From a virus (lineage: Duplodnaviria > Caudoviricetes), in IMG/VR virus record IMGVR_UViG_3300001336_000012, positions 1 through 57,722 of that record: a stretch of 57,722 bases of DNA, one strand, 5' to 3'. The position numbers and the translations under genes are program-made. This document shows, piece by piece, positions 627-43,833 of this stretch. Below the pieces are notes generated by a model. That model had not been told where the DNA came from, did not search any database, and saw only the letters and a program-made list of their open reading frames with translations. The first letter of the stretch is position 1, and each line of letters opens with the position of its first letter.

Positions 627-2050
627 CAAACCTCTCAGGCTCTGTTCTTATGATGACAAGAGCATTGGGTGATTTTCCTAATGAACTATTTATTAGTTTA
701 CAGCAAGGGTACAGACAATTTGGTGCACAGACAGATCAATTTGTTACACAATTAGGAAATCAAATTAATGCATTCTCTAATACCTTTGGCGTACAAATTG
801 AAATGCTATCACAAACTGTATCATTTATGGTGCAAGAAAATGCATTTCTTTATAGAAACAATATGCAAGCACAGGCAAGAGCAAATCAAAACCTTATTAG
901 AGCTGCAGCATTATCCGGGCAAATGGGTATATCTTCTGCTGCATTTGTATCTGACTTAGCAAGTACATCGCAATTTGGCACTATGTCAGAGATGGCTGAA
1001 ATATATCAAGGCGGTGCATTATTGCAAGGCTTTGATACAAGCCAGTTTCAACAATTAATGCAAGGTGGTGATGCTGCAAGTGCAACAGAAATGCTACTTT
1101 CAAGTGTTGGCCAAACTATTAATTCAATTGATGATCAATATCTAAGAGCAGAATACATGCAAAGAATTGGTGGGTCATTTGGTTTAAGCCGCGATGACAT
1201 ATTAATGATTGCAGCTAATAGTGAAAACTTAGGACAATATTCGGCAGAGCTTGCTGAAAAAATGGCAGACGTCGATAATTCAATGCTTGATGAGCTTAGC
1301 GATCTTAAAATGTCTGTTAGTGATAGACTTGATAACTGGTGGTCTAATACTAAAACCTCAGAAAATTTAGGTAAAGTATTACAAGATGCCGGACTTGTTG
1401 GTGTAAGTGGATCACTTAGATTGATTAATGCTCAACTCGGGCTTATCACAGGACAAAGCTTAAGTGGCGGAAAAATGGCAAGTTCTATTGCAAGTAGATT
1501 TATGGGTGGCGGACAAAGCAATGTACCTATGACATTAGCAAATGCACCTTGGCAACAGGGTGGTGCTACAGCAGGCCCGTCTGCTATGACTAGACTTGGT
1601 TTTGGTGCAGCAGGTATTGCTGGTGGTATTGGTACAAACATCCTGGGTAGAAATATACAAACAAATACAGGCCTTACTGATGCACAAGCAAATATTGGTG
1701 GTGGTGCCCTAAACATTTTAGGTGGTGCTGCTGGTGGTGCTGCAACAGGCTTTGCTATAGGTGGTGGTCCTGTTGGTGCAGTTATTGGTGGTATTGCAGG
1801 AGCATTAGGTGGTATTGCTAATACTATTGATGCCGCAGCTGATAGAAGAAGTGCTATGGAACAACTCGAAGATGAAAAAAGAGCTGCAGCAAGAAGTAGC
1901 CAACAACAAGTATTAACGGGCGATCCAATTGTAGATGCTATTAATAGCATGAACGCAAACTTAACAAATGTCCTAAATGATAACTTCAAAGAAAGCATTC
2001 AAATGTCCTTTGTCCTTGACACAGCAAATAGAACAGATGCAGGGAGGTAA
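560..2050 (+). CDS. Tape measure protein, main/C-terminal part
   Basis: Ala/Gly/Gln-rich helical protein with GGPVGAVIGGIAGALGG segment, directly upstream of baseplate genes; frame open from 467. Confidence 0.7.
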   Translation: MVETQNALLTRGGFRGINIGDLTNLSGSVLMMTRALGDFPNELFISLQQGYRQFGAQTDQFVTQLGNQINAFSNTFGVQIEMLSQTVSFMVQENAFLYRNNMQAQARANQNLIRAAALSGQMGISSAAFVSDLASTSQFGTMSEMAEIYQGGALLQGFDTSQFQQLMQGGDAASATEMLLSSVGQTINSIDDQYLRAEYMQRIGGSFGLSRDDILMIAANSENLGQYSAELAEKMADVDNSMLDELSDLKMSVSDRLDNWWSNTKTSENLGKVLQDAGLVGVSGSLRLINAQLGLITGQSLSGGKMASSIASRFMGGGQSNVPMTLANAPWQQGGATAGPSAMTRLGFGAAGIAGGIGTNILGRNIQTNTGLTDAQANIGGGALNILGGAAGGAATGFAIGGGPVGAVIGGIAGALGGIANTIDAAADRRSAMEQLEDEKRAAARSSQQQVLTGDPIVDAINSMNANLTNVLNDNFKESIQMSFVLDTANRTDAGR

Positions 2051-2055
2051 TGTAA

Positions 2056-3291
2056 ATGGCTAGAACAAAAGCAGAATTTACACAAACACCTTGGACAACA
2101 AATCAATCTTATGTAAAAGACAGATTAACTAAACTTTCTATTGAAACACTTAATCAAATAGAAACCTTATACATTTATAATATAAACACAGAGCAAGAAA
2201 TAAACTTAAAATTAGTTCCAGACCAAATGGCAGAAAGCTACAGCCCTAAAATTGTAACGGTATCTCCATTTGGTGTTGTCACGCCTATTAACTTTTATAC
2301 AGGTGGAAATGAAAAAAGCATTTCTTTTAATTTTAGAATGCATGAAGATTTGCAAGGCATTGGTGGATCTATTTATAATACAGTGCAATTACTTAAAGAT
2401 ATGGCAAAACCTATTTATAGAAATGCAACACTACTTGAACCACTTGTCTACTTTCAATTAGGTGAACAATTTGTAGGCATGGGTCATATATCAACAACCT
2501 TTAACTATAATAAACCGTTTAGAGATGGTCGCTACACTATGGTTGAAGTATCTATGACATTTGTATTTCATGAGCAGTTTGAAGATGATCCAATTGTTAT
2601 TAATGACAATTATATTGCAGAGCTTTCACCATTTGCAATTACTTCACCATTAACTGAAACAAGTGCATATGTTGATGACTTTATTTTGTTTCAAGCAGAC
2701 CCAGATTATTTTATTACACAAGTATTTGGTAGTCAAAAATTTAAAACATACTTTAATACAATTACTACGTCAGTTAATGAATATATACTTGAATCAACAA
2801 ATCAAGGTTGGAATGCAGAAGAAAGAATAGAGTTTAATCAAAGCTTAGAGTCAACTGTTATTTCTCCATTACTTGAAGGCAGTGATGTTGAAGCAAATGA
2901 ATTTTTTTCTAATCCATTTGCATTAAGCTTAATTGAACTATTTTATAATTTAAGAGAAACTATGTTTTCAACAAGAGATACTTCTATTAATGTATTTATT
3001 GAGCGCTTTATAAATTTAAAAAATGCATTAGACGCATTAAGAACAGAATATGAAACATCATATAGAACAAGGGCTGCAGGTAGTGCAGGAACTGAAGACG
3101 TCATTGAAGATGGTATTGGCTGGTATTCAAGAATAGTAGGAACAGATAGTTTAACAGGATTGCCAAGAACCAGGGTAGTACAAATGTCAGATACAGAAAA
3201 AACAGCATTTGTTGAATTGCTAAACTTCTATGAAAATATTATTAATTCTCAAATTTCATTATATGAAGGATTAAGAGGAGCTGGTAATTAA
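2056..3291 (+). CDS. Tail tube-like baseplate protein (tube initiator)
   Basis: N-terminal P-x-x-x-x-E-S-Y...G...P...YTGG..K.ISF pattern typical of tube-fold baseplate proteins; position after tape measure. Confidence 0.55.
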   Translation: MARTKAEFTQTPWTTNQSYVKDRLTKLSIETLNQIETLYIYNINTEQEINLKLVPDQMAESYSPKIVTVSPFGVVTPINFYTGGNEKSISFNFRMHEDLQGIGGSIYNTVQLLKDMAKPIYRNATLLEPLVYFQLGEQFVGMGHISTTFNYNKPFRDGRYTMVEVSMTFVFHEQFEDDPIVINDNYIAELSPFAITSPLTETSAYVDDFILFQADPDYFITQVFGSQKFKTYFNTITTSVNEYILESTNQGWNAEERIEFNQSLESTVISPLLEGSDVEANEFFSNPFALSLIELFYNLRETMFSTRDTSINVFIERFINLKNALDALRTEYETSYRTRAAGSAGTEDVIEDGIGWYSRIVGTDSLTGLPRTRVVQMSDTEKTAFVELLNFYENIINSQISLYEGLRGAGN

Positions 3292-4313
3292 TGTTAGAAA
3301 GACTATACTTTATTTATAATTATGGTGCTGAAAATATTAATGAGCAAGTTGTCATAGATATACCACGGCTCATTCCTGATTCAGTACAATATAATTATCA
3401 GCCAAACTTTCAGTCACAGAGTACATTAGGAAGACGTTCGCCAATTTTTCTTTATACTGGCGGATCTAAAATGTCATATGGTTTTTCTTTAAAACTGCAT
3501 GAAGATATTTTAGACAGCGTTTTAATTACAGAAAATGGGACAACTACAAAACCGGATTCTATTGTTGCATTAGTGGACAAGCTTAAAATGTTAGCATACC
3601 CAATGACACAAAACGACGGCACAATTTCTTATCCAAAAATATACTTTGAAATTGGTGAGCTTTCAGGCTATGGCATTGTTGAAGTGAGTGCGCAATGGGA
3701 AAAACCCTATCGTAATCTAAGATATATACAAGCAAATGTTTCTTTTAGTGTAACTGTTGAAAAAGAAATAGAACCCCCAGCAGTTATATCAAGAGAAGAA
3801 TCTTTAGATTTTGCAGGGCTTGTCTATGACTATAAGATTAATTTAAATTTAACGCAAGAAGAAGCAGAACGTCTCGTACAAAATTTTGGACCTGCATATA
3901 ATGGCACAGTTGAAGATTTAATTAGAGCAGGCGACGTAACTCAATTTACAAAAACAATTAAAGAAGAAATTGCAATAGAAAGTTATAATTATCAAATTGA
4001 GCGGTTAAAAAATCTTAACGTCCTATTTACAACAGAAGCAGGCCAAAACATTGCTGAAGACTTTGATCTATTTAATGAAATTACAAATGGCAACTTTGAC
4101 TTTACAAAACTATATACAGAAGATCAAACAGATGCAAAAATTATTAAAGATATAAAAGATGAGTTTAGAGATTACTTAGACTACTATTATGATGAAGTTA
4201 GTACAGATATGACTCGAGATGAATACTACTTAGTATTAGACAGCGTCTTTACGGTATTAGAAAACCTACAAAAATATGCAGAGGAGATATACGGTTATGG
4301 CCAGAGCAGTTAA
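3291..4313 (+). CDS. Tail tube-like baseplate protein, paralogue of 2056..3291
   Basis: IPDSVQYNYQPNF...LGRRSPIFLYTGGSKMSYGFSLKLHED aligns by eye with the preceding ORF (YTGGNEKSISFNFRMHED). Confidence 0.55.
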   Translation: MLERLYFIYNYGAENINEQVVIDIPRLIPDSVQYNYQPNFQSQSTLGRRSPIFLYTGGSKMSYGFSLKLHEDILDSVLITENGTTTKPDSIVALVDKLKMLAYPMTQNDGTISYPKIYFEIGELSGYGIVEVSAQWEKPYRNLRYIQANVSFSVTVEKEIEPPAVISREESLDFAGLVYDYKINLNLTQEEAERLVQNFGPAYNGTVEDLIRAGDVTQFTKTIKEEIAIESYNYQIERLKNLNVLFTTEAGQNIAEDFDLFNEITNGNFDFTKLYTEDQTDAKIIKDIKDEFRDYLDYYYDEVSTDMTRDEYYLVLDSVFTVLENLQKYAEEIYGYGQSS

Positions 4314-5514
4314 TGTCCTATTAGATGTAGGAGACAAACGATATGATATTAATAAAATGGGCCTAATTAAACTGGAATTTAATAGATTTTTAGGTTCAAC
4401 ACAATCTGCATCATCAGGTGTTTTAAGTGATTTGACAATAACTATGTTTGATCAAACAGGTGACGAGCTTCTTTCAATTTTGCAAGCAAGCCAAAATAAT
4501 CTTAAAATTAGCTATGGATTTGAAAATAATTTGTCACAACCATATAATTTAAATCTACTTAAATTTAATTCAACCTTTAATAATTTAGGTGCTATGGTAT
4601 CAATTGGTGCCATAGGTTCACAAATCAATAGAAAATTTCCAGCAGAAGTTTATCCACCAGGTACAAGCTTTAGAAATATAATATTAAAAATGGCAGAAAG
4701 AAACGGCTGGTATACAGGATCTGAGGGAAGCACAGACTTTGTTAATGTCAATGTACTATTAGATAGAGCATTATATAAAAGCCCAGATGAAACCGATATG
4801 CAATTCTTAGAATCTAAGCTTATCCCACTTGCTAATCAAAGTGCAACCAATACAACAAACTCATCACAAACAACTTTTTTTGATTTTCAATTAGTTCAAG
4901 TTGAAGGTCGTCTCTCTTTGTTTTTTAGAGAATATTCAAGCAGAGGAACTAAAAGAAGAATATGGAAATACGAATATGGTTCTTCGTCTAATAACTCTAT
5001 TATATCGTTGACAAACTTTATTGATTTTTCATTTTTAATTAACGGGGTATCTATTAAAATTCCTATGGTAGCAGAAGATGCAATTATTAGAGATGAAGAT
5101 AGCTTAGAATTAGAAATACAAGATACCATTAAAAATAAGCTTGAGGATATATCAAAATTTATTCGAGACAATAATTTACCAGAAATTGATCCTGCAAACT
5201 TTTTATGGAATGTTGAAGTTATACCTGTTGAAGATACAGGAAATGTAGAAATAGAAGATATTATATTAAATGAAATACAAAAAGTTATTAATGCAATTAG
5301 TACAATTGAAATAGAAGTAATTGGTAATCCTAAAATTATGCCAACAGATCTTATTGATTTAACGGTTAAAAATAAAGACGGCGATTTAAATATTATTTCT
5401 TCATCATCAAGCAGTGGTAGCTACTGGCGAGTTATTACAATTAAAGAACAAATTGGTATGGACGGTTATACAACTCGTATGCAATTAGTGCGTGAAGTTG
5501 TTAACTTTATTTAA
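4297..5514 (+). CDS. Baseplate hub protein (gp27/late control D-like)
   Basis: C-terminal IEVIGNPKI...SGSYWRVITIKEQI..DGYTTRMQL hub signature; start moved to 4297 (GAGGAG RBS). Confidence 0.7.
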   Translation: MARAVNVLLDVGDKRYDINKMGLIKLEFNRFLGSTQSASSGVLSDLTITMFDQTGDELLSILQASQNNLKISYGFENNLSQPYNLNLLKFNSTFNNLGAMVSIGAIGSQINRKFPAEVYPPGTSFRNIILKMAERNGWYTGSEGSTDFVNVNVLLDRALYKSPDETDMQFLESKLIPLANQSATNTTNSSQTTFFDFQLVQVEGRLSLFFREYSSRGTKRRIWKYEYGSSSNNSIISLTNFIDFSFLINGVSIKIPMVAEDAIIRDEDSLELEIQDTIKNKLEDISKFIRDNNLPEIDPANFLWNVEVIPVEDTGNVEIEDIILNEIQKVINAISTIEIEVIGNPKIMPTDLIDLTVKNKDGDLNIISSSSSSGSYWRVITIKEQIGMDGYTTRMQLVREVVNFI

Positions 5515-13177: not shown

Positions 13178-13769
13178 AATATCGGCGTCTCTTTTAAATA
13201 GCTATTTTTATTACTTAAACAATCCATCAAACAAAAATTATGAAGGCTTTGTCAATCGACTTAAAAATGTATTTGAAACCAATTTCTTTTTAGAAAGAGG
13301 TAATCAATTTGAAGCAGATGTCTTTGAAGGTAAGCATGACATAATGTCTGAGCTCGTCAAAGACTTACCAAAACAAGTTTGGGCAAGCAAGACAATTGAA
13401 CGAGAAGATTATAATATTCGTATTGCCGGAATTATGGACGTCATTGATGAAGATAAAAAAAGAATATACGATATAAAAAGAGTGTCTAAGTTTACAAAAG
13501 ATAAATATGATAATTCTACACAGCATCTCATTTATTTTTATTTAAGACCAGAAATGACAGACTTTTATTACTTAGCAGGTGTTGGTCGCAATGAACTTGA
13601 AAGAAAAGAAGTTGCACATTATAAAAAACCAGATGACAAAAAAGTAGAGGAAACTGTATTGCATATTATTGATAACTTTTATAAATTTTTAAAAGATAAT
13701 AATCTTTGGTCAGTATATACTGAAAATCAGCAAGCAAAAATTAAAACTTCTCAGGAGGAAGGTAAATGA
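13161..13769 (+). CDS. PD-(D/E)XK exonuclease (Cas4/RecB-like fold)
   Basis: ISASLL..Y, ERGNQFE, GIMDVI...IYDIK, Q..IY motifs; start moved to MKPTYKIS. Confidence 0.7.
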   Translation: MKPTYKISASLLNSYFYYLNNPSNKNYEGFVNRLKNVFETNFFLERGNQFEADVFEGKHDIMSELVKDLPKQVWASKTIEREDYNIRIAGIMDVIDEDKKRIYDIKRVSKFTKDKYDNSTQHLIYFYLRPEMTDFYYLAGVGRNELERKEVAHYKKPDDKKVEETVLHIIDNFYKFLKDNNLWSVYTENQQAKIKTSQEEGK

Positions 13770-14926
13770 ATAATCAAGAAAAGTTAGAAACATTTATCAT
13801 AGAAAATGCGGATAGCTGTCGTCTTTTAGATGGTCGCATATCATGGAAACAATTAATTGCACTTATTGAAGAGCGGTTTCCAAATGAAAATACAAATAAA
13901 GAAAGAATTCGTAGTTTATATAGAAAACACTTTGATGAAAAGTATAAAGGGCATCAAAATATAAAAGAAACTAAAGAAACAATTAATAGGGAAAACTTAC
14001 CAATTGAAAAAGCAATTATTAAATTAATTAAAAAGAAATTTTCAGTTAATAGTTTAGCAAATGCTTTAGATGTTACAGAAGAAGAAGTATTGCAACTTGT
14101 CTTAGATCTGCAATTCCAAGGGCATGATATTGTGATGTGGACCGAAGATGGCATACGCTATATTCAAGGAAGCTTAAAAAATAGATATAAAGCAGAGCCT
14201 ACAGAGCATAGGTTAAATAAAAATGGTGAACAAATTAAAATTGCAGTTTTTAGTGATACGCATATTGGTCATAGACAATCTGCAAAAAAAGAAGTTCAAT
14301 ACTTTATTAATGAAGCATACAGACAAGGTGTTCGTGATATATTCTTTGCGGGTGACTTGGTTGAAGGACACTACATGGCAATTAGACCTACCTCAATTAA
14401 AGAGTTAGAAGCTATTGGTTTTGATGATCAAATTGATTTAGCTTCAGAAACTCTACCTGTGCTTGAAGGTCTTGCCTATCATATGATTAGTGGTAACCAT
14501 GATGGCACATTTGCAAGAAATGCATTTGCAAATCCTATTAAGACATTAGCAAGAGAAAGAAAAGACATTAATTATTTAGGGCATAACTTTGCTAAGATTT
14601 GGCTCAACGATCTTATTGATATTACATTGGTTCACCCAACCGATGGTGTTGGTCAGAATTACAGTCTTAAAATGAGACAGCATATTGATCGTGCTAGAAC
14701 TGAAAAGTTATCTAAGTTTATTTTTATGGGGCATTACCATAAGTTTGACCATACTTATTACAAAGGTATTAATGGTTTTATTATGCCATCGTTTGTCCAC
14801 TACTCACATTTTATGGATGATAAAAACCTTGCATCAATTGTTGGCGGCATTATATTGACAATTAATACAAATAGTAAAGGCCAGTTAGCTTCGTTTTTAC
14901 CAGAGTACTTCTTTTTTGAAGATTAA
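13766..14926 (+). CDS. Calcineurin-like metallophosphoesterase with N-terminal HTH-like region
   Basis: DTH, GDLVEG, GNHD, GHYH motifs. Confidence 0.85.
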   Translation: MNNQEKLETFIIENADSCRLLDGRISWKQLIALIEERFPNENTNKERIRSLYRKHFDEKYKGHQNIKETKETINRENLPIEKAIIKLIKKKFSVNSLANALDVTEEEVLQLVLDLQFQGHDIVMWTEDGIRYIQGSLKNRYKAEPTEHRLNKNGEQIKIAVFSDTHIGHRQSAKKEVQYFINEAYRQGVRDIFFAGDLVEGHYMAIRPTSIKELEAIGFDDQIDLASETLPVLEGLAYHMISGNHDGTFARNAFANPIKTLARERKDINYLGHNFAKIWLNDLIDITLVHPTDGVGQNYSLKMRQHIDRARTEKLSKFIFMGHYHKFDHTYYKGINGFIMPSFVHYSHFMDDKNLASIVGGIILTINTNSKGQLASFLPEYFFFED

Positions 14927-24206: not shown

Positions 24207-24572
24207 ATGTTAAATAAGTTACAAAAAGCAGATAAAGATACAAATGATCTTATTAATCAAGTAAAAGACTATTTATTTAGTATTGGCATCCGAACAAGCA
24301 GAGAAAGAGCTTGGGACATATTTCAAACGGTACATCAGCTACCGTATTTAATGTTGATTGAAAAAAACCCAGAAATAGCGTATCAAGGCATCGGTCAGCA
24401 CATTTCACATAATAAACATGGTAATCAATTCTTAGCCATTAAAAATGTGGGACGCTTTGAATTAAAAGGTGTATCGTCTAAAAAAGAGCAAAAGAAAAAA
24501 GCAGCCGTAAAATTTATGCCATCAGCAGAAATGAAAAAGTTAGTTGCTGAAAAAGTTAAGGTAAAAGAATAA
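24207..24572 (+). CDS. HU/IHF-like DNA-binding protein
   Basis: IKNVGRFEL...AVKFMPSAEMKKLV resembles the HU C-terminal motif. Confidence 0.6.
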   Translation: MLNKLQKADKDTNDLINQVKDYLFSIGIRTSRERAWDIFQTVHQLPYLMLIEKNPEIAYQGIGQHISHNKHGNQFLAIKNVGRFELKGVSSKKEQKKKAAVKFMPSAEMKKLVAEKVKVKE

Positions 24573-25990
24573 TGGCATACACTGAATTTGTTTATAAAAA
24601 CTGGGTTGACAAAAAAGAACCACTGGCTAATTTTCCTTTTGATTTTGACGCTAAAAAACTTGCAGATACACCAGAGCATGATTTTGAATTAGACACTATA
24701 TTACCTACAGATGATTATGATGATTTAGAAATTAAAAATAAAAAAGCTAAAGAAGCAAATGAAAAGTTAAAACAAGATGTAAAAGAAGCACTGATTAATG
24801 TTGTTGACTTTAACAAAATAAGTATTAAAGATAAAACATATATTGCAAAATTAAATATCTATAAATTAGATGGTAAAAAACGAGAACTAATTGAAACAAG
24901 ATACTTAGAAATCTATATTAAAGATACAGGCTATAAGTATATTTTAATTAACAGCGTAGAGCAGCTTAAAAAAATATTAAGTGTGCCATTTAAAAAAATA
25001 GCATTTGATACTGAGACAACTGGGTTAGATCCAGAAGCAGATCATATTGTTGGTGTATCATTTTCATTCGGTAATAAGACAGGCTATTATTTTGCGGTTG
25101 CACATGCAGAGCAATTTAAAGAGTATAACCTTGGCTTAGAATCTTTAAAAATATTTTATGAAGCAATGACAAAAGCTGAACGTGTTTATATGTTTAACAG
25201 CCGATTTGATATGCGCATGATGGAATATACAGATGATAGCTTTGATATGTCAAAAGTAAAAACACATGATGTCCAGGTAAGTGCATGGTTTGCCGATCCA
25301 GATTTTAGACAGCACAGTCTTAAATATTTAGAAAAGCATTTCTTAGGGTATTATAGACCCGATCTTTCAGACACACTTAAAAGCAATAAGTTAAAAAACT
25401 TTGACCTTAGTATTATTTCTCCTAAGAATATTTTATTTTATGCAGCTCAAGATGCATTATCTACTTATGACTTAGGCGAAGAAACATACAAATACCATGA
25501 AGAATTTCGCAAATCAGGAATAATAGATCAAACACTATTATATCCATTAATGAAAATGGAAAATCATAGTATGCGTATTGACACACTTTATTTAGAAGAA
25601 CAGCTCGCACATATTATGCCAAGGCTTGAAGAACTAAATGAAAAGCTACATAACGAAGTAGGCAATGTCAACTTTAACAGTCCTAAGCAAAAGCAAGAGC
25701 TATTTAAAAGCTTTGGGCTTCATACAAATGTTGAAACAAAAACAGGTGCAATGGCAACAGGCACAAAAGAAGTTGAAGAAATGATTGAAAATCTTGAAGC
25801 AAAAGGTAAAAGTTACCCAAGCTGGCTAAAGTATTTAGGTGAAAGAGCCAAGCTTGAAAAGCTGCAATCGACATTCTTTAATAGCTTATTGCAACAAGCA
25901 AAGTTAAACAATGGTCGTGTTAGAATTAATTATAGAAATACACAGGCAGCAACTGGCCGCATGTCTTCAGGTGCAGACAGAGGCGAATAA
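24572..25990 (+). CDS. polA: Family A DNA polymerase, N-terminal half (3'-5' exonuclease + thumb)
   Basis: Exo I FDTETTGL, Exo II FNSRFD, Exo III YAAQDA, NFNSPKQ; ends at ATGRMSS. Confidence 0.9.
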   Translation: MAYTEFVYKNWVDKKEPLANFPFDFDAKKLADTPEHDFELDTILPTDDYDDLEIKNKKAKEANEKLKQDVKEALINVVDFNKISIKDKTYIAKLNIYKLDGKKRELIETRYLEIYIKDTGYKYILINSVEQLKKILSVPFKKIAFDTETTGLDPEADHIVGVSFSFGNKTGYYFAVAHAEQFKEYNLGLESLKIFYEAMTKAERVYMFNSRFDMRMMEYTDDSFDMSKVKTHDVQVSAWFADPDFRQHSLKYLEKHFLGYYRPDLSDTLKSNKLKNFDLSIISPKNILFYAAQDALSTYDLGEETYKYHEEFRKSGIIDQTLLYPLMKMENHSMRIDTLYLEEQLAHIMPRLEELNEKLHNEVGNVNFNSPKQKQELFKSFGLHTNVETKTGAMATGTKEVEEMIENLEAKGKSYPSWLKYLGERAKLEKLQSTFFNSLLQQAKLNNGRVRINYRNTQAATGRMSSGADRGE

Positions 25991-26245: not shown

Positions 26246-26656
26246 ATGGAAATTAAGTTAATTAGTTTTGGAGGTCAAGCACCAAGCAGAGCACACTATA
26301 ATGATGCAGGTGCAGATGTCCACATTTCAAAAAGTGTAGTACTACCACCGCAACAAATTACTAAAATACCGTTGGGCGTTGGCCTTGAACTACCTGATGG
26401 CTACGTTGCGTTTATATTTCCAAGAAGCGGTATGTCCGCAAATAAAGGTGTGACAACTGAAATTGTTCCAATTGATTCTGGCTATCGTGGAGAAATTCAT
26501 GCAATTGTCTTTAATGCAAATGACCATGAAGTAAATCTTGAAAAGGGTACTCGTGTAGGTCAGTTAGTTGTCTTTCCAATTGCAATACCAAAGTTTACAT
26601 TTGAAGAAGGCGAGCAAAGAAATACGAAAGCATTTGGAAGTTCTGGTGATAAATAA
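26246..26656 (+). CDS. dut: Trimeric dUTPase
   Basis: AGAD, PRSG, IDSGYRGE, RVGQLV, FGSSG motifs. Confidence 0.9.
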   Translation: MEIKLISFGGQAPSRAHYNDAGADVHISKSVVLPPQQITKIPLGVGLELPDGYVAFIFPRSGMSANKGVTTEIVPIDSGYRGEIHAIVFNANDHEVNLEKGTRVGQLVVFPIAIPKFTFEEGEQRNTKAFGSSGDK

Positions 26657-27567
26657 TGTCCGTCATATTCTTTGGGGATCCTCATTTTGATGCACAGACA
26701 CCTGTTTCAAGAATAGACAACTATGCTGAAGCATCTTTGCAAAGACTAAAAGATATATTGTCATTAGCAAAACAAAACCAAGTACAGCATGTAATGACAA
26801 CGGGTGACTTTTTTGATAAGTATGAAGTATCATTTACTTATTTAAATGAAATTATATCTGTTCTAAAAGACTTTGAAAAAGAAAATATAATTGTATGGTC
26901 TTTAATTGGAAATCACGATTTACCATATAATAACATGTCTTATTTTAAGAACACGCCTCTTAATACCTTGTTTACAAGTGGTTTGGTGCGACATTTAAAA
27001 AAATTTAATGAATTTGAAGACTTTAATGTCTATGGTATTGATTTTACTAATGCTGAAGCAATTAAAGATATGCAAGTAGATAAAAGCAAGACAAACATTT
27101 TAATTATGCATTATGCGACAGAAAATACAGTACCTGGCGAATCTATTAATGAAGGTCTTGAAAAGTTCGACTTTGTCATCTCCGGTCATGATCACATGTA
27201 TTACCCACTATTAATATTAGACAGCGGGACAAAGGTATTTAGACCAGGATCATTACTTAGGCGAACAAAAGAAGCATACAACTTAACCAGAGATATCGTC
27301 ATTTGTCTATTTAAAGATAAAGCCATGACAGAAGTAAAGCTACCTAATGTAAAACCAGCAGCAGAAATATTTAGAAATGAAGCATTTGAGACAGCAAAAT
27401 TAAATCTGTATGATAATAAGTACAACGAATTATTTAACAAAGATTATTTTGAAGACAATGCAAGCGACATACTTTCAATATTAAATAGCAATATATTGCC
27501 AGTTACGGTTAATAATGATAGTAAAGAAGCAATAAAGCGCTACTTAAAATCTCAAGGCATCACTTAG
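26656..27567 (+). CDS. sbcD: Mre11/SbcD-like nuclease
   Basis: GDPH, GDFFD, GNHD, GHDH, PGS motifs. Confidence 0.85.
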   Translation: MSVIFFGDPHFDAQTPVSRIDNYAEASLQRLKDILSLAKQNQVQHVMTTGDFFDKYEVSFTYLNEIISVLKDFEKENIIVWSLIGNHDLPYNNMSYFKNTPLNTLFTSGLVRHLKKFNEFEDFNVYGIDFTNAEAIKDMQVDKSKTNILIMHYATENTVPGESINEGLEKFDFVISGHDHMYYPLLILDSGTKVFRPGSLLRRTKEAYNLTRDIVICLFKDKAMTEVKLPNVKPAAEIFRNEAFETAKLNLYDNKYNELFNKDYFEDNASDILSILNSNILPVTVNNDSKEAIKRYLKSQGIT

Positions 27568-29190: not shown

Positions 29191-30198
29191 TTGGCGAATA
29201 AAAAAGAATATAAAAAATCATTCTTTATTGAAATGAACATGCAAAACCCGCCAAAGCCAAGCTCAATGAATTGGTATGTTCGCAAAGCAGACGCTAATTC
29301 TTTTCCTGAATATACCGTTTGTGGGTATGAGTTTACTGAAAAACAAATGCCCGACTCGCTTGGTATAGCAGAAGGGTTTTCGCCTAAGTTAAATTTTAGG
29401 CGAGCCTTTTTACCAGAAGAAGGGCATTACTGGGTATCTCGAGATTTTTCTGGGCAAGAGCTTAGAATTATGGCAATACTTTCAGAAGAAGAAACATGGA
29501 TTAAAGCATTTAATAATGATGAAGATATTCACAAAGCAACCGCAGTTACTATTTGGGGTGAAGAAAACTACACTAAAGATATGAGACGTGCTGCAAAAGC
29601 AATTAACTTTGGGCTTTTATATGGTACAGGTCCAGATTCATTAGCAAAACAAATTGATGTCACCGTTAAAAAAGCACAGGAATACATTGATACATTTTTT
29701 CAAAAGCTTCCAAAGATTAAAACTTTTATGGAAAAATGCGAAAATGAAGCATTAAAAAATGAAGAAATTGAAAATATGTATGGACGCAAAAGAAGATTAA
29801 AAAGCTATATATACTCAAATAGAATGAATGAAAATGTATTAATGAACTCAGGTAAAAGAAAAAGTTATAACTTTCCTATTCAATCTATGGGTGCAGAAGT
29901 TACAAAGCTTGCACTTATTAATGTCTATAATTCTTTAATTAATTTACCAGAGTATAAAGGCAAAGTTTATTTTATGAATACCATTCATGACGAAATAAAC
30001 GTTAGTGTTCAAAAAGATATTGTCAATGAAGTAGTTAAAATAATGGGCGATCTTATGAATCATCAACCCGCAGATCAGCCTGTTGCAATTATTACAGGGC
30101 TTGAAATTGGTAATTCAATGGGGTTAACATGGAAGTTTAAGCAAGATCCTGAAACATTAGAACTAACACCAGAGTATGAACCAATAGAAAATAGTTAG
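29191..30198 (+). CDS. polA: Family A DNA polymerase, C-terminal half (palm/fingers)
   Basis: NMQNPP, motif A DFSGQELR, motif B RRAAKAINFGLLYG, motif C TIHDE; TTG start with AGGAGG. Confidence 0.9.
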   Translation: MANKKEYKKSFFIEMNMQNPPKPSSMNWYVRKADANSFPEYTVCGYEFTEKQMPDSLGIAEGFSPKLNFRRAFLPEEGHYWVSRDFSGQELRIMAILSEEETWIKAFNNDEDIHKATAVTIWGEENYTKDMRRAAKAINFGLLYGTGPDSLAKQIDVTVKKAQEYIDTFFQKLPKIKTFMEKCENEALKNEEIENMYGRKRRLKSYIYSNRMNENVLMNSGKRKSYNFPIQSMGAEVTKLALINVYNSLINLPEYKGKVYFMNTIHDEINVSVQKDIVNEVVKIMGDLMNHQPADQPVAIITGLEIGNSMGLTWKFKQDPETLELTPEYEPIENS

Positions 30199-32622: not shown

Positions 32623-32988
32623 ATGTTTATTAAAGATATTTTAGCATTACCAGAGTGGTTTTTATTTGTTGAGTTATTTGTTTATGCGGGTATTATTGTT
32701 GTCGGCATTATTCCAACGTCTATTCGATTAGTAAGACGTAGAAGACAACATGCTAGATTGGCAGAAATTCAAAACATGATATTTACACGGGCACAAAAGA
32801 AGGCAGAAGAAATTAAAAAAGAGATAAGTAGACAATACTTAGATCCAAATGAAAAGCGTAGACAAACGGTTAAAGAAAAGTATGGCGTTGATTATGCATT
32901 TCAATATAATGCAAATGAAAAACGCAGACAAACAATGATTAAAAAGTATGGCGTCGAATATGCATTCCAATTAAAAAATGAAAATTAA
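32623..32988 (+). CDS. Membrane-anchored protein with two KYGV repeats
   Basis: TM helix, then NEKRRQTVKEKYGVDYAFQ and NEKRRQTMIKKYGVEYAFQ. Confidence 0.7.
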   Translation: MFIKDILALPEWFLFVELFVYAGIIVVGIIPTSIRLVRRRRQHARLAEIQNMIFTRAQKKAEEIKKEISRQYLDPNEKRRQTVKEKYGVDYAFQYNANEKRRQTMIKKYGVEYAFQLKNEN

Positions 32989-33961
32989 AGTAAAAAATTA
33001 TCAAGCCATTAAAGAAGCAGACCTAACCTTTGAACCCGGAGTTACCGTTATTGTTGGTAGTAGCAATAACGGTAAAAGCTCTATCATTCGGGCAATTGAA
33101 GCTGCCATCAATAATAAAGGTGGCAGCGATTTTATTAACTATGACGCAGACGCCTGTGATGTTATCATAGAAGATAATGGGCATGTTATTCAATGGCACA
33201 AAGAAAGAAAGTCAGCAAAGTCATATTATCAGCTTAATAATGAAAAGCTAAATAAGATCGGACAAAAGCAAATAGAAGAAGTTGGCGTTATGTTAAACAT
33301 GCCAGAGATTGTTGTCAATAATGATAAGTTTAGATTAAACTTTTGGAAACAACTGGACTTTCCGTTTTTAGTAGGAAAGACACATTATCAATTGTTTGAC
33401 TTTATTTCTAAGTCAAAAGACCAAGAGCTAATGGCAAATCTTTTAGATATGACAGACGAGCAGGCTAAAAATTCTAAGTCTGAGCTCTCTGATATTAATG
33501 CACAGATAAATACGAGGATTCAAGATATAAATGCGGTACAGGCTGAAATACAAGACCTGAGCAAGTATGAGCAGTTTGATATTGAAAAGTTTAAAAAGCT
33601 TTCAGATATTTCCAGTAGTATCGATTACAAAATTTATAAGTATGGATCTGCAAATGAAAAGTATGACGAATTAAAAGCTAATATTGATACCATTAATGCA
33701 ACTATTAACAAAAAGCAAAACATGTTAGAAAGCGCTAAAACTTTTATTAATGAAATAGGACAGCTAAATAATCAAATACAAAAAATAGAAAATGTCCTAA
33801 TGCAAATAGAAAGTAATAATCAAAAAGTAAAGGCAGCAAAAGAAACACAGCAAAGACTTGAAGCAAAGCAATTGTCATTAAAAAAAGAGCTTCAGACATT
33901 TGACGTATGTCCATTTTGCCATCAACCATTAAATAATAATCACGGAGGTTTACATGAGTAG
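32978..33961 (+). CDS. sbcC: SbcC/Rad50-like ATPase, N-terminal part to zinc hook
   Basis: IKVKNYQAI, Walker A GSSNNGKSS, Q-loop, coiled coil, CPFC hook. Confidence 0.85.
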   Translation: MKIKVKNYQAIKEADLTFEPGVTVIVGSSNNGKSSIIRAIEAAINNKGGSDFINYDADACDVIIEDNGHVIQWHKERKSAKSYYQLNNEKLNKIGQKQIEEVGVMLNMPEIVVNNDKFRLNFWKQLDFPFLVGKTHYQLFDFISKSKDQELMANLLDMTDEQAKNSKSELSDINAQINTRIQDINAVQAEIQDLSKYEQFDIEKFKKLSDISSSIDYKIYKYGSANEKYDELKANIDTINATINKKQNMLESAKTFINEIGQLNNQIQKIENVLMQIESNNQKVKAAKETQQRLEAKQLSLKKELQTFDVCPFCHQPLNNNHGGLHE

Positions 33962-34205
33962 TAATGATTTGCAACAAAGATTCCAAAGTATATCAGATGA
34001 AATTGAAAATTTAAACCTTCAAAAAGCACGAGTTGAAGCAAACTTAGAAACAATAGCAAAAGAAAAAGAAATTTTGAGACAGCAGATTATAGAGTTAGCT
34101 AATGTCAATACTGTTGAAGAAGCAGAAAATGTATTAATAAAGCTAAAAGAAAAGCTAGATATGCTTTCAAAAGAAGCTGAGGCTATTTTAAATGCCAACT
34201 TATAA
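33954..34205 (+). CDS. Coiled-coil protein between the SbcC halves
   Basis: Heptad-rich; own GGAGG RBS. Confidence 0.65.
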   Translation: MSSNDLQQRFQSISDEIENLNLQKARVEANLETIAKEKEILRQQIIELANVNTVEEAENVLIKLKEKLDMLSKEAEAILNANL

Positions 34206-34851
34206 TGACATCATTAATGCCTTTAAAGAAAAAGAATCATTAGCTAACTACAAAAAAGAAACACTTAAAAAATACCTTAACGATAAAGAACAACTAATTA
34301 AAAATAAAGAAGAACTGACAGACAGACTTGAGAAGTTTGATAACCTTATGTTTACATGTAAACTTATTATTGAAAAGATTACTTTTAATAGTAAGCATAA
34401 GTTAGAAAAGTTTTTATCATATGCGTTTCAAAACATATTTACAGATCGGCACTATGCGATTGAGCTTACTTTAAAAGAAGATACTAAAAAAGCAGGGCTT
34501 GAAATCACTTTAATTGAAGGTGATAAAAGGCAAGAAATTACTGAATCCGTAGGTGGAGGGATCATTTCTACCTTAGGACTTTTGCTTCAGATCTATTACA
34601 TTGAAGTTTATGGGCTAAATAAAATTATGTTTATTGATGAAGGTTTAAAAGAAGTATCAACAGGACAGATGATTAATGGAAGAGAAGATACTAACTACTT
34701 AAAAAATATTCTTAACTTCTTAAAATGGCTATCAGAAGAAAAACAATATAAGTTTATTATTGTAACACATGACACACATGTTAAAGAATTTGCAGATAAA
34801 ATATATGAAGTAAATAAAGGAAGTGTTACAAATGTCTCTACAACTGCATGA
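34192..34851 (+). CDS. sbcC: SbcC/Rad50-like ATPase, C-terminal part
   Basis: Signature-like SVGGG, Walker B MFIDEG, H-loop IIVTHD. Confidence 0.85.
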   Translation: MPTYNDIINAFKEKESLANYKKETLKKYLNDKEQLIKNKEELTDRLEKFDNLMFTCKLIIEKITFNSKHKLEKFLSYAFQNIFTDRHYAIELTLKEDTKKAGLEITLIEGDKRQEITESVGGGIISTLGLLLQIYYIEVYGLNKIMFIDEGLKEVSTGQMINGREDTNYLKNILNFLKWLSEEKQYKFIIVTHDTHVKEFADKIYEVNKGSVTNVSTTA

Positions 34852-36222: not shown

Positions 36223-36407
36223 TGTTCTTGCATAATAAATATGGCCTTTTTTATGTTGACAAAGAAGAGCAAAAGTATTTTTACAAAAGCTATTCAAGTT
36301 TAGATGCAGTTTATTATGCAATAGAACATGACCAAGATTTTTTAAACTTAGAAAAAACAAAAGTAATTGTCATTGAATTGGAGGAAAACTATGAGAATTA
36401 TAATTGA
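36219..36407 (+). CDS. Hypothetical protein
   Basis: ATGA overlap. Confidence 0.55.
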   Translation: MMFLHNKYGLFYVDKEEQKYFYKSYSSLDAVYYAIEHDQDFLNLEKTKVIVIELEENYENYN

Positions 36408-36846
36408 TGGTAATGACGGCGTAGGTAAAACATGGCTTGCTAAGAAATTACAGCAAGAATTAGATATTACCAGCTACATACATTTAACATACAAAGATCC
36501 AAAAGATTATTACTTTTATTCAAGCATGCTTAAAAAACATGATGTCGTATTTGATCGCAGCTTTATGGACGAGCACATCTATTCTGAAGTATTAGGTAGA
36601 CAACCTGAATTCCCCGAAGAAGTCGAAAGAATGTTGTATCAGCAAGTAAAAGATGCCGGCTATCGAGTAATCATTTGCCATACAAAAAATAAAAAGCTTA
36701 AAGAAAATGAACATAAAGAAATAAAAATGTTTGAAGAAAAGATTGACACCTACTTTAAAAATATTGCATTAAAGCATGGCTACTATTATTTTGATCCAAT
36801 TAATGGTAATTATGAAGCATTATTAAATGAATTAAAGGAGAAATAA
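36391..36846 (+). CDS. dNMP (thymidylate-type) kinase
   Basis: IIDGNDGVGKT P-loop, FDRSF..E.IY; start moved to 36391. Confidence 0.8.
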   Translation: MRIIIDGNDGVGKTWLAKKLQQELDITSYIHLTYKDPKDYYFYSSMLKKHDVVFDRSFMDEHIYSEVLGRQPEFPEEVERMLYQQVKDAGYRVIICHTKNKKLKENEHKEIKMFEEKIDTYFKNIALKHGYYYFDPINGNYEALLNELKEK

Positions 36847-37650
36847 ATGGAGTATAATTACATTGAGCTTGGTAAAAAGATTTTAAAAGAAGGCATTACA
36901 GAAAATACTCGTATTGGTCCTACACTATCTTTGCATAATCAAATGCTTTCGTTTGATCTTCAGTTTGGCTTTCCACTAATGACAACAAAGCATGTTGGTC
37001 AAAAAAGCATTATTACAGAAACTTTATGGTATTTAAAGGGGACAACAAGTATTGACTACTTAAAAGAAAATGATGTGCATGTTTGGGACAAATTTGCAGA
37101 CGCTAACAATGACATTGGTAAAACCTACTCATGGCAGTTTAGAAACTTTAATGGTGTTGATCAGGTTAAAGATGTCATTAATAGATTAAATGTAGCAGAT
37201 AAGACCACAGATAGACGTGCCATCATTAATCTGTACAATGTCAATGAATTAGAAGAGATGTCTATTCCACCTTGCATTACTACCATTCAATTTAATGCAT
37301 ATTGGATTGATAATAAAAAATATGTAGATTCTTCAATCTATCAAAGAAGTGGTGACTTCTGCCTCGGTGTACCATATGATATTGCTGAAATGGCTTTACT
37401 GACAACCATTATTGCAGCGTATGCAAAAGCAACACCAAAAAATATGACTGTCTTTTATTCCAATGTCCATGTCTACAAAGCACACATTAAGACATTAGAA
37501 AAGCAATTATTAGAAGAACCTACAGCTTTTCCAGAATTATCTTACGATCATTTAGAAATATTAAAAAGAGAACCAGAAGATTTAACACCAGATCTTTTCT
37601 ATTTATCAGGTGTCCGTAAACGCAAAAAGTTTGACTACGAGTTATTCTAA
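36847..37650 (+). CDS. Thymidylate synthase homologue, probable dCMP methyl/hydroxymethyltransferase
   Basis: ThyA motifs TTK, E.LW, RR, PPC, QRSGD, HVY, but GVPYD (Asp) instead of GxPFN and PPCI instead of PPCH. Confidence 0.8.
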   Translation: MEYNYIELGKKILKEGITENTRIGPTLSLHNQMLSFDLQFGFPLMTTKHVGQKSIITETLWYLKGTTSIDYLKENDVHVWDKFADANNDIGKTYSWQFRNFNGVDQVKDVINRLNVADKTTDRRAIINLYNVNELEEMSIPPCITTIQFNAYWIDNKKYVDSSIYQRSGDFCLGVPYDIAEMALLTTIIAAYAKATPKNMTVFYSNVHVYKAHIKTLEKQLLEEPTAFPELSYDHLEILKREPEDLTPDLFYLSGVRKRKKFDYELF

Positions 37651-43194: not shown

Positions 43195-43376
43195 AAAAAT
43201 CTGATTATGAAAAAGCATTAGATGAATTTTATCAAATAGAAGAAGATGTAGAAGACAAAAATATTTTAATATTTGATGAATTAACTGAAGAAGAAAAAGA
43301 TGATCTAAGGGAGACCATGGGTAATGAATTCAGACATGCAGAAAACCATTTCGCAAAAAATAAGGACTCTGAATGA
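43191..43376 (+). CDS. Small acidic hypothetical protein
   Basis: ATGA overlap, GAGGAG RBS. Confidence 0.55.
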   Translation: MKKSDYEKALDEFYQIEEDVEDKNILIFDELTEEEKDDLRETMGNEFRHAENHFAKNKDSE

Positions 43377-43833
43377 AATACCACTATTTGCAGCAATCAT
43401 AGTTACACTCGAATTTTTATTTTTAGTATTACCAAATATATCGTTAACACCATTAATATTTGCAGTTTATTTTGCAAATAGATCCTATAAGCATTCAGTA
43501 ATGCTTATTACAGTTTATATGGGTGTAGAGGTACTTCAATGGGGCATAAGCCTATGGGTAGCTCCAATGTTTTTAGGCTGGCTTTTATTAGCTGTCCTAA
43601 TTAAACAATTTAAAGCAGTGCCTGCATATATTAAAAGTTTTTTCTTTGCATATTTGTATGGGGCAATGTTTATGCCTTTGACGGTCATTGTCTATAAGGT
43701 TGACTGGTGGGGTTATTTAGTTGCAGACTTTCCGTTTGCAACCACAATGGCAATAACAAATATTTTAACATTTGTCTTACTATTTGATCGTCTCAGTAAA
43801 TTTTTTGCAACATACAATATAAATCAATATTAA
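43324..43833 (+). CDS. ECF transporter S-component-like membrane protein
   Basis: 169 aa, about 5-6 TM helices, LPNI motif in loop 1, DFPF near the end. Confidence 0.5.
   Translation: MNSDMQKTISQKIRTLNEIPLFAAIIVTLEFLFLVLPNISLTPLIFAVYFANRSYKHSVMLITVYMGVEVLQWGISLWVAPMFLGWLLLAVLIKQFKAVPAYIKSFFFAYLYGAMFMPLTVIVYKVDWWGYLVADFPFATTMAITNILTFVLLFDRLSKFFATYNINQY

Follow-up and report, generated by a model that had tools for sequence, protein, structure and literature searches.

The kinase and thymidylate synthase-like gene pair

This report concerns a pair of adjoining genes in a tailed phage genome, IMG/VR record IMGVR_UViG_3300001336_000012. The whole record was analysed and is called the window below; it is a linear stretch of 57,722 bp for which CheckV gives a completeness of 63%. 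The first gene encodes a small P-loop kinase, and the second encodes a homologue of thymidylate synthase (TS; ThyA in E. coli) whose active site differs from that of the canonical enzyme at positions that include the pyrimidine selector (Table 1). An earlier reading of the letters alone, here called the original prediction, had noted a kinase-like gene beside the ThyA homologue. That gene is real: its ATG at 36391 stands 7 nt after a GGAGG sequence, and its stop codon TAA (36844-36846) directly abuts the ATG of the ThyA-like gene at 36847. Scans for promoters (25 matches against 25.0 in shuffled sequence) and for terminators (2 against 1.7) defined no operon boundary.

Table 1. Coordinates of the genes and active-site codons discussed in the text, numbered from the first base of the window
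Feature	Position	Strand	Basis
P-loop kinase, 151 aa, predicted kinase for a modified nucleotide	36391..36846	+	phrog_761, AlphaFold2/Foldseek, locus linkage
ThyA-fold enzyme, 267 aa, predicted dCMP C5-methyltransferase	36847..37650	+	PF00303, signature, AlphaFold2 model
ATT, Ile140, three before the catalytic Cys (E. coli Leu143)	37264..37266	+	Counted back from Cys
TGC ATT, catalytic Cys143-Ile144 (E. coli Cys146-His147)	37273..37278	+	HMMER alignment
GAT, Asp178, at the E. coli Asn177 position (pyrimidine selector)	37378..37380	+	HMMER alignment
Family A DNA polymerase, N-terminal part	24572..25990	+	phrog_17 2.1e-36, profile positions 568-978
Trimeric dUTPase homologue	26246..26656	+	Pfam PF00692 1.2e-22; best PDB sequence matches named DUTPase, residues 2-134
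Family A DNA polymerase, C-terminal part	29191..30198	+	phrog_17 3.4e-65, profile positions 981-1236
Deoxynucleoside kinase family protein, 206 aa	43859..44479	+	Pfam PF01712 2.9e-22; phrog_761 4.8e-19

Active site and fold of the ThyA-like enzyme

The ThyA-like protein matches Pfam PF00303 Thymidylat_synt (2e-66; residues 4-246, profile positions 2-249 of 266) and phrog_160 'thymidylate synthase' (9.7e-67), and its sequence identity is 39% with E. coli ThyA, 24% with the Xp12 enzyme and 22% with T4 gp42. Its open reading frame (ORF) contains YQRSGDFCLGVPYDIAEMALL and EEMSIPPCITTIQF. When the protein was aligned by HMMER to the solved E. coli TS, the strings YQRSGDFCLGVPYDIAE and MSIPPCITTIQF fell over YQRSCDVFLGLPFNIAS and MALAPCHAFFQF ('lgvpydiae' over 'lglpfnias' and 'ppcittiqf' over 'apchaffqf'), so that D178, I144, C143, I140 and D170 of the query correspond to Asn177, His147, Cys146, Leu143 and Asp169 of E. 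coli, whose numbering is used below when columns of the family are named. The original prediction had read an Asp codon at 37378-37380 and PPCI in place of the PPCH of ThyA, and both readings are borne out by this alignment, in which Asp178 lies over Asn177 and Ile144 over His147. Asn177 and His147 are the residues that mark canonical dTMP synthase (EC 2.1.1.45), and both are therefore replaced here.

Most of the remaining active site is that of a ThyA. The catalytic Cys, Glu58, Trp80, Tyr94, Arg21/126/127/166, Ser167, His207 and Tyr209 are kept, the string REW.YRR..C.RS is the same as in E. coli at the catalytic and phosphate columns, with residues that are invariant in an alignment of 30 relatives, and the folate-pocket residues V79, W80, L172, G173 and Y176 resemble those of ThyA. 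An AlphaFold2 model built from the 30 relatives has a mean predicted local distance difference test score (pLDDT) of 94.9, and its best Foldseek match is E. coli TS, with a TM-score of the query (TMq) of 0.88-0.90 over 266-275 columns; solved TS structures overall gave 0.88-0.92. The C-terminal arm of TS closes the active site. In the query 59 residues follow the His207/Tyr209 region, compared with 57 in E. coli ThyA, while T4 gp42 (246 aa) and RB69 gp48 (238 aa) end early.

Conservation of Asp177 and phylogeny

We collected 224 relatives, 76 from a word-indexed search and 148 more from an exhaustive HMMER search; as the best matches to the query, these are enriched for its own clade and do not represent a census. 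In this set the Asn177 column holds 84 Asp, 139 Asn and one gap. Of the 139 Asn177 proteins 136 have His147 and 3 lack it, while of the 84 Asp177 proteins only 9 have it and 75 lack it; Asp169 is kept in all 224. In an alignment of 30 clade relatives at 39-74% identity, C143, D170 and D178 are invariant.

The relatives were aligned with seven reference enzymes from annotated records (E. coli ThyA, T4 gp42, PaMx74, Xp12, RB69 td, RB69 gp48 and SPO1 gp29). A FastTree tree of 125 rows, in which PaMx74 is present twice, placed the query, at a local support of 100, within a clade of 63 metagenomic proteins; every one of the 63 has Asp177 and an Ile, Leu or Val after the catalytic Cys, and 42 of them form the query's subclade. 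In a quick IQ-TREE search of 60 rows the 17 sampled clade members likewise formed one group (Shimodaira-Hasegawa-like approximate likelihood ratio, SH-aLRT, of 100). Because Asp177 is invariant across this well-supported clade, it is a fixed feature of the lineage, neither a sequencing error nor a polymorphism. As far as the enzyme itself goes, the original prediction stood up to each test applied; taken as a whole it is partly supported.

The free trees set Xp12/PaMx74 apart from the query clade, on a long branch. An approximately unbiased (AU) test did not reject the two as one clade (p-AU 0.913), and the tree constrained in this way scored 39.7 log-likelihood units above the quick free search. 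An independent origin from the Xp12 type, which had been considered, was therefore dropped. The motifs WDKF and PYD are common to the query and the Xp12 enzyme, and this sharing would fit common descent or convergence alike. Word searches of the literature, with supplements not covered, found no description of the 63-member clade or of the 151-aa kinase; the metagenomic enzymes assayed in 10.1101/2024.12.05.627091 may include proteins of this clade.

Comparison with characterised enzymes

Three publications give signatures against which the query can be read. In the MetaGPA study (PMC8670742), positions 177 and 147 are the two most differential between ThyA homologues of cytosine-modified and unmodified viral contigs. 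Unmodified contigs have Asn at position 177 and modified contigs mostly have Asp, and mutagenesis is cited in which the change of Asn to Asp turns TS towards dCMP. Lee et al. (PMC13326640) report that Asp177 confers the preference for dCMP, that a bulky hydrophobic Leu143 is thought to keep water out, that Asp or Glu stands at this position in T4-like hydroxymethylases and in MilA, and that a recently discovered group of flavin-dependent 5-hydroxy-dCMP synthases is marked by D169N. Finally, according to a preprint (10.1101/2024.12.05.627091), the Xp12 enzyme and five of seven metagenomic Asp177 homologues gave 5-methyldeoxycytidine (5mdC) in E. coli together with T4 gp1.

The residue three before the catalytic Cys (Cys-3, the Leu143 position) separates the enzymes that we compared according to their product. 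It is acidic in all three oxygen-adding enzymes (Asp in T4 gp42 and SPO1 gp29, Glu in RB69 gp48) and non-acidic in all four methyl-forming ones, where E. coli ThyA and RB69 td have Leu and the Xp12 and PaMx74 enzymes have Asn. In the query it is Ile, and I, L or V is found in all 84 Asp177 relatives. Asp170, the equivalent of Asp169, is kept in the query and is Asn in RB69 gp48, so that the D169N mark is absent. By the published signatures, Asp177 with a residue other than His at position 147 points to dCMP as the substrate. Because Ile140 is non-acidic, Asp169 is kept and the C-terminal arm is of ThyA length, the product favoured is methyl, neither hydroxymethyl nor 5-hydroxy. The original prediction had also leaned towards 5-methylcytosine (5mC) over 5-hydroxymethylcytosine (5hmC), and these residues strengthen that choice. 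Read together with the fold, they suggest that the enzyme is probably a folate-dependent dCMP C5-methyltransferase derived from TS.

The nearest functional parallels are Xp12 and PaMx74, phages with C fully replaced by 5mC. Their enzymes have, like the query, a ThyA fold, Asp177, a residue other than His at position 147, Asp169 and a non-acidic Cys-3; the predicted product is the same and a single clade is not rejected. In contrast to the query, they have Pro rather than Ile after the Cys, an insertion before it and another C-terminus, and their genes have deaminase, DHFR (dihydrofolate reductase) and hydrolase genes on the flanks, whereas the partner of the query gene is a small kinase for which no homologue could be detected in either phage. 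The engineered dCMP methylases E. coli ThyA N177D and L. casei TS N229D (cited in PMC8670742) carry the same selector change in a ThyA-like enzyme. The query clade goes beyond this one change, with His147 fixed as Ile, Leu or Val and Phe176 as Tyr, and with Trp83 replaced by Phe in the query's subclade, which would suggest optimisation past a single mutation. T4 gp42 shares with the query the ThyA superfamily, the Asp selector and, as predicted for the query, dCMP as substrate and a downstream reliance on a phage kinase; its Cys-3 Asp, its short C-terminus and the dCTPase gp56 and glucosyltransferases encoded nearby are not found here. The 5-hydroxy-dCMP synthases RB69 gp48 and DLP3 gp80 are also Asp177 ThyA homologues with a cognate phage dNMP kinase (PMC13326640), and in RB69 a small 'thymidylate kinase' gene, gp45, lies in the gp48 cluster; the query lacks the D169N and acidic Cys-3 marks of these enzymes.

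The partner kinase

By sequence the 151-aa kinase gives only weak matches, to phrog_761 'thymidylate kinase' (1.2e-10), to Pfam AAA_28 (29.7 bits, just above the cut-off) and to the deoxynucleoside kinase (dNK) family (0.0032). Against PDB sequences nothing was significant, the best match (0.027) covering the P-loop only. An AlphaFold2 model from 18 relatives reached a pLDDT of 94.3, and in Foldseek it was closest to B. subtilis YorR (3kb2, TMq 0.75; 2axp, TMq 0.72), with weaker matches to deoxyadenosine kinase, shikimate kinase and thymidylate (TMP) kinases. The protein has the P-loop GNDGVGKT and an invariant DRSF motif, and the motifs GNDGxGK and DRxF-DE-IYS are kept in its family, one member of which carries the name 'deoxyadenosine/deoxycytidine kinase'. 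The model thus identifies it as a P-loop kinase of dNK/TMP kinase-like fold, shorter than dNK or TMP kinase, and its matches span nucleoside and nucleotide kinases.

A profile of the kinase family (18 relatives) found nothing in T4 (E <= 0.1), Xp12 or PaMx74; SPO1 gave a weak match (E 0.0018) and RB69 a very weak one (E 0.08). The original prediction had called the product a dNMP kinase. A kinase of suitable fold, linked to the clade, is what we find; kinship with T4 gp1 is not, and the T4 dNMP kinase can serve as a functional analogue only. The RB69 match is gp45 'thymidylate kinase' itself (L075, 24047..24595), three genes from the 5-hydroxy-dCMP synthase gp48. Small kinases may recur next to ThyA homologues that modify cytosine.

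The linkage of the kinase to the enzyme was followed in 7 viral and 49 metagenome contigs, of which 52 were searched with both protein profiles (L017-L020 were left out). Seventeen of these loci have a clade-type enzyme (PYDI, and PPC followed by Ile or Leu) and 35 have other ThyA homologues. After removal of second copies (L048, the same as L014, and L033, nearly the same as L016) and of L052, where the gene lies at the edge, 14 loci and the window remained. The kinase is upstream of the clade enzyme in 12 of these 15, among them loci whose other neighbours are unrelated, and is missing from L016, L027 and L028; at the loci with other ThyA homologues it was found in none of 35. In 11 of the 12 it abuts or overlaps the enzyme gene, lies within 22 nt of it or is cut by the end of the contig, and in L040 it is 248 nt away. 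Near-copies remain in this sample (L024-L026; L027-L028), and a rough grouping gives the kinase in 10 of 12 distinct contexts. It is the sole neighbour conserved beyond the closest relatives. For 8 of 19 kinase relatives there is a contig equal in size to one with a clade ThyA homologue, which is only a proxy for linkage.

At L015, a 148-kb phage, two kinase paralogues stand in tandem before a clade-type ThyA homologue, and the genes at 1957..2322, 2925..3398 and 4060..4566 comprise these paralogues and a gene of the PF18909 dATP/dGTP-diphosphohydrolase family (5.6e-20). The latter is a candidate dCTP-clearing enzyme and is absent from the window.

A proposed route to 5-methylcytosine in phage DNA

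We propose that the two genes encode a 5-methyl-dCMP synthase and a clade-specific kinase that together put 5mC into the phage DNA. From the comparisons above we give this whole chain a probability of about 0.55, and we hold with higher confidence that the enzyme acts on dCMP. Also in favour of the proposal, the window and the three related records have neither a second ThyA nor a ThyX. In the proposed reaction Cys143 would attack C6 of dCMP, and Asp178, in place of the uracil-selecting Asn, would hydrogen-bond to or protonate cytosine N3/N4. The methylene of methylenetetrahydrofolate would then be transferred and reduced by the cofactor hydride to give 5-methyl-dCMP, in a closed ThyA-type pocket that excludes water. 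The abutting kinase would phosphorylate 5-methyl-dCMP, which host kinases probably handle poorly, and host nucleoside diphosphate kinase would complete 5-methyl-dCTP. Incorporation by the phage family A polymerase would leave some or all phage cytosines as 5mC, which may bring some anti-restriction benefit.

Several findings weigh against this proposal. The genes that flank the Xp12/PaMx74 enzymes in annotated records are for a pyrophosphohydrolase or HAD hydrolase, a dCMP deaminase and DHFR. Six-frame family searches of the window found no dCMP/cytidine deaminase, MazG, PRA-PH, PF18909 pyrophosphohydrolase or DHFR (no match to PF00383, PF03819, PF01503, PF18909 or PF00186), and no ThyX or C5 DNA methyltransferase. 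By CheckV the window is only 63% of a genome. A syntenic relative that is 94% complete (G001; 86,472 bp, with the same gene order across L014) also lacks a deaminase, PF18909, DHFR, MazG and PRA-PH. There is therefore no visible way for the phage to exclude dCTP. Moreover, 4-base palindromes that contain C or G are depleted in the window, with a median observed/expected ratio (O/E) of 0.72 (n=12) against 0.96 for A/T-only palindromes (n=4), unlike what full protection of cytosines would predict. Among single sites CTAG (0.23), ACGT (0.56) and GATATC (0.19) are depleted and GATC (1.43) is over-represented. The depletion hints weakly that selection continues to act on C-containing sites, but it may have other causes. 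The Cys-3 rule is only correlative and drawn from a handful of enzymes, and the proven methylases of Xp12 and PaMx74 have Asn there and not a hydrophobic residue. Two of the seven metagenomic Asp177 homologues yielded no 5mdC (10.1101/2024.12.05.627091). Finally, the TS equivalog model TIGR03284 is above its cut-off (173.6 vs 108.35), the other seven of the eight such NCBIfam models being below theirs.

The other two related records differ somewhat: in G002 a PF18909 pyrophosphohydrolase gene precedes the kinase-enzyme pair by about 2 kb, and G003, a complete relative, has a weak deaminase-family match (1.1e-7). The only nucleotide pyrophosphatase seen in the window is the trimeric dUTPase homologue, which is encoded in all four records. 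Its alignment to a solved DUTPase chain contains what we take to be the standard dUTPase motifs, and these usual-looking motifs give no hint of an altered specificity. A relationship to the T4 dCTPase gp56 was considered and rejected, since there is no similarity (E 28).

A bolder form of the proposal is that an Asp177 ThyA homologue and a 150-aa kinase make up a minimal, portable two-gene 5mC cassette that needs no dCTPase, deaminase or DHFR and in which the dedicated kinase, perhaps aided by activity of the dUTPase homologue on dCTP, would confer selectivity. We regard this as doubtful. If it were true, selectivity would be achieved without dCTP destruction of the MazG or gp56 type, by a logic unlike that of T4 and Xp12, and substitution could be partial and tunable.

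Alternative explanations

dCMP deaminases accept 5-methyl-dCMP, and it is possible, if unlikely, that dCMP is methylated here chiefly to supply thymidylate. A dCMP deaminase of the host, or a phage enzyme that escaped recognition, would deaminate 5-methyl-dCMP to dTMP or 5-methyl-dCTP to dTTP, leaving little or no 5mC in the DNA. At about 31% G+C the demand for T is far above that for C, and neither a further ThyA nor a ThyX was found in the window or the three related records, G001 again having one ThyA homologue and no ThyX. The lack of a recognised dCTP-excluding enzyme and the avoidance of C-containing palindromes would also fit, and Xp12 is reported to obtain part of its dTTP by deamination of 5-methyl-dCTP (10.1101/2024.12.05.627091). 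However, neither the window nor G001 has a gene of the deaminase family, a dedicated monophosphate kinase better suits a nucleotide bound for the triphosphate, and a host that makes dTMP directly would leave no obvious gain from the detour.

It is also unlikely that the enzyme is a dCMP hydroxymethylase or makes some other C5 adduct, leading to DNA with 5hmC or a derivative. Asp177 is common with T4 gp42, the ThyA fold supports unexpected chemistry such as flavin-dependent 5-hydroxylation (PMC13326640), and the many window ORFs without an assignable function might hide a transferase. The features that stand against this explanation are the Ile at Cys-3 where Asp or Glu would be expected, the retained Asp169, the ThyA-length C-terminal arm, the TMq of about 0.9 to ThyA structures and the identity of only 22% to T4 gp42 versus 39% to E. 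coli ThyA. In addition, comparison of essentially every + strand ORF of at least 90 aa with PHROGs (68 proteins queried) and Pfam (30 queries from the window), in which many ORFs had no match and with 37% of the genome missing, revealed no glycosyltransferase, carbamoyltransferase or other group transferase, in agreement with the original prediction, which had seen no glycosyltransferase in the window.

The least probable explanation, that of a working TS for dUMP or a dual dUMP/dCMP enzyme in which Asp is a tolerated variant, could draw on its being the sole ThyA/ThyX found, on an encoded dUTPase that would supply dUMP, on TIGR03284 and on the mostly intact ThyA active site, but it is opposed by the fixation of Asp177 and of the loss of His147 across the 63-member clade, the seven NCBIfam models below cut-off, a clade-specific kinase that would be pointless for a dTMP handled by host TMP kinase, and the reports that positions 177 and 147 track cytosine modification in metaviromes and that Asn to Asp shifts engineered enzymes towards dCMP (PMC8670742 and work cited there).

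Significance

That a change of Asn177 to Asp gives phage dCMP methylation is established, and the signature has been used for metavirome mining since 2021. What is new here is modest: an uncharacterised clade that lies near canonical ThyA, the close association of this clade with a 150-aa kinase family not described before, and the finding of no recognised dCTP-excluding or recycling partner. The automatic name 'thymidylate synthase' (phrog_160, JGI names, TIGR03284) would conceal a likely DNA-modification pathway. If the proposed route to 5mC is correct, a low-G+C aquatic myovirus-like lineage would join the phages that replace C by 5mC, as would about 60 metagenomic relatives with the signature, and the question would be raised of how dCTP is kept out without a dCTPase. 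The compact pair of a methylase and a 150-aa kinase would also be of possible use for making 5-methyl-dCTP.

Other genes of the window and of related loci

All genes of the window lie on the + strand, in the order baseplate genes, replication module and portal, and G+C varies from 28 to 35% along it. Because the window spans baseplate genes, replication module and portal, the missing 37% of the genome probably consists of structural genes. No tRNA genes were found in the window. A megablast search of the kinase and ThyA-like genes against 50,697 phage records gave no match, and tblastn gave only ordinary ThyA genes at less than 60% identity; therefore no close cultured relative is at hand. Among sequencing runs, the stretch was found only in what is probably its source sample, an aquatic metagenome, and in no RNA run.

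The two polymerase ORFs match consecutive stretches of phrog_17 and are separated by 3.2 kb with four genes, for the dUTPase, an SbcD-like nuclease, a primase-like protein and an SprT-like protein. The dNK family gene appears from its matches to be a second kinase of the nucleotide module. Directly upstream of it, a 169-aa ORF (43324..43833) resembles S components of energy-coupling factor (ECF) transporters (Atlas feature score 0.95, structure TM 0.86; clusters mainly Bacillota). As leads only, the two genes may be a candidate phage uptake-plus-salvage pair, and the resemblance may be a hint of a Bacillota host. Atlas searches with two ORFs of unknown function by the dNK gene gave no link to nucleotide metabolism.

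Further genes may act on DNA. The product of 23128..23667 matches Pfam Pyr_excise (pyrimidine dimer DNA glycosylase) at 2.4e-05 and phrog_624 'DNA binding protein' at 1.6e-48. The ORFs at 13766..14926, 26656..27567, 32978..33961 and 34192..34851 represent two SbcD/Mre11-like phosphoesterase genes and an SbcC-like ATPase, the last apparently split into two ORFs that are separated by one of 83 aa.

Two kinds of ORF were seen near the gene pair at related loci. Five of these have an ORF of 250-266 aa about 1.5 kb upstream of the ThyA homologue that is absent from the window (for example L014, 8061..8861; L024, 4492..5247; L029, 215..967); its motifs, HYD...DN...FFD.EE.G, presumably recall those of M28-type metallopeptidases. 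At L023-L025 a 282-aa ORF with a DPPY motif, which may be Dam-like, lies upstream of the kinase-enzyme pair.

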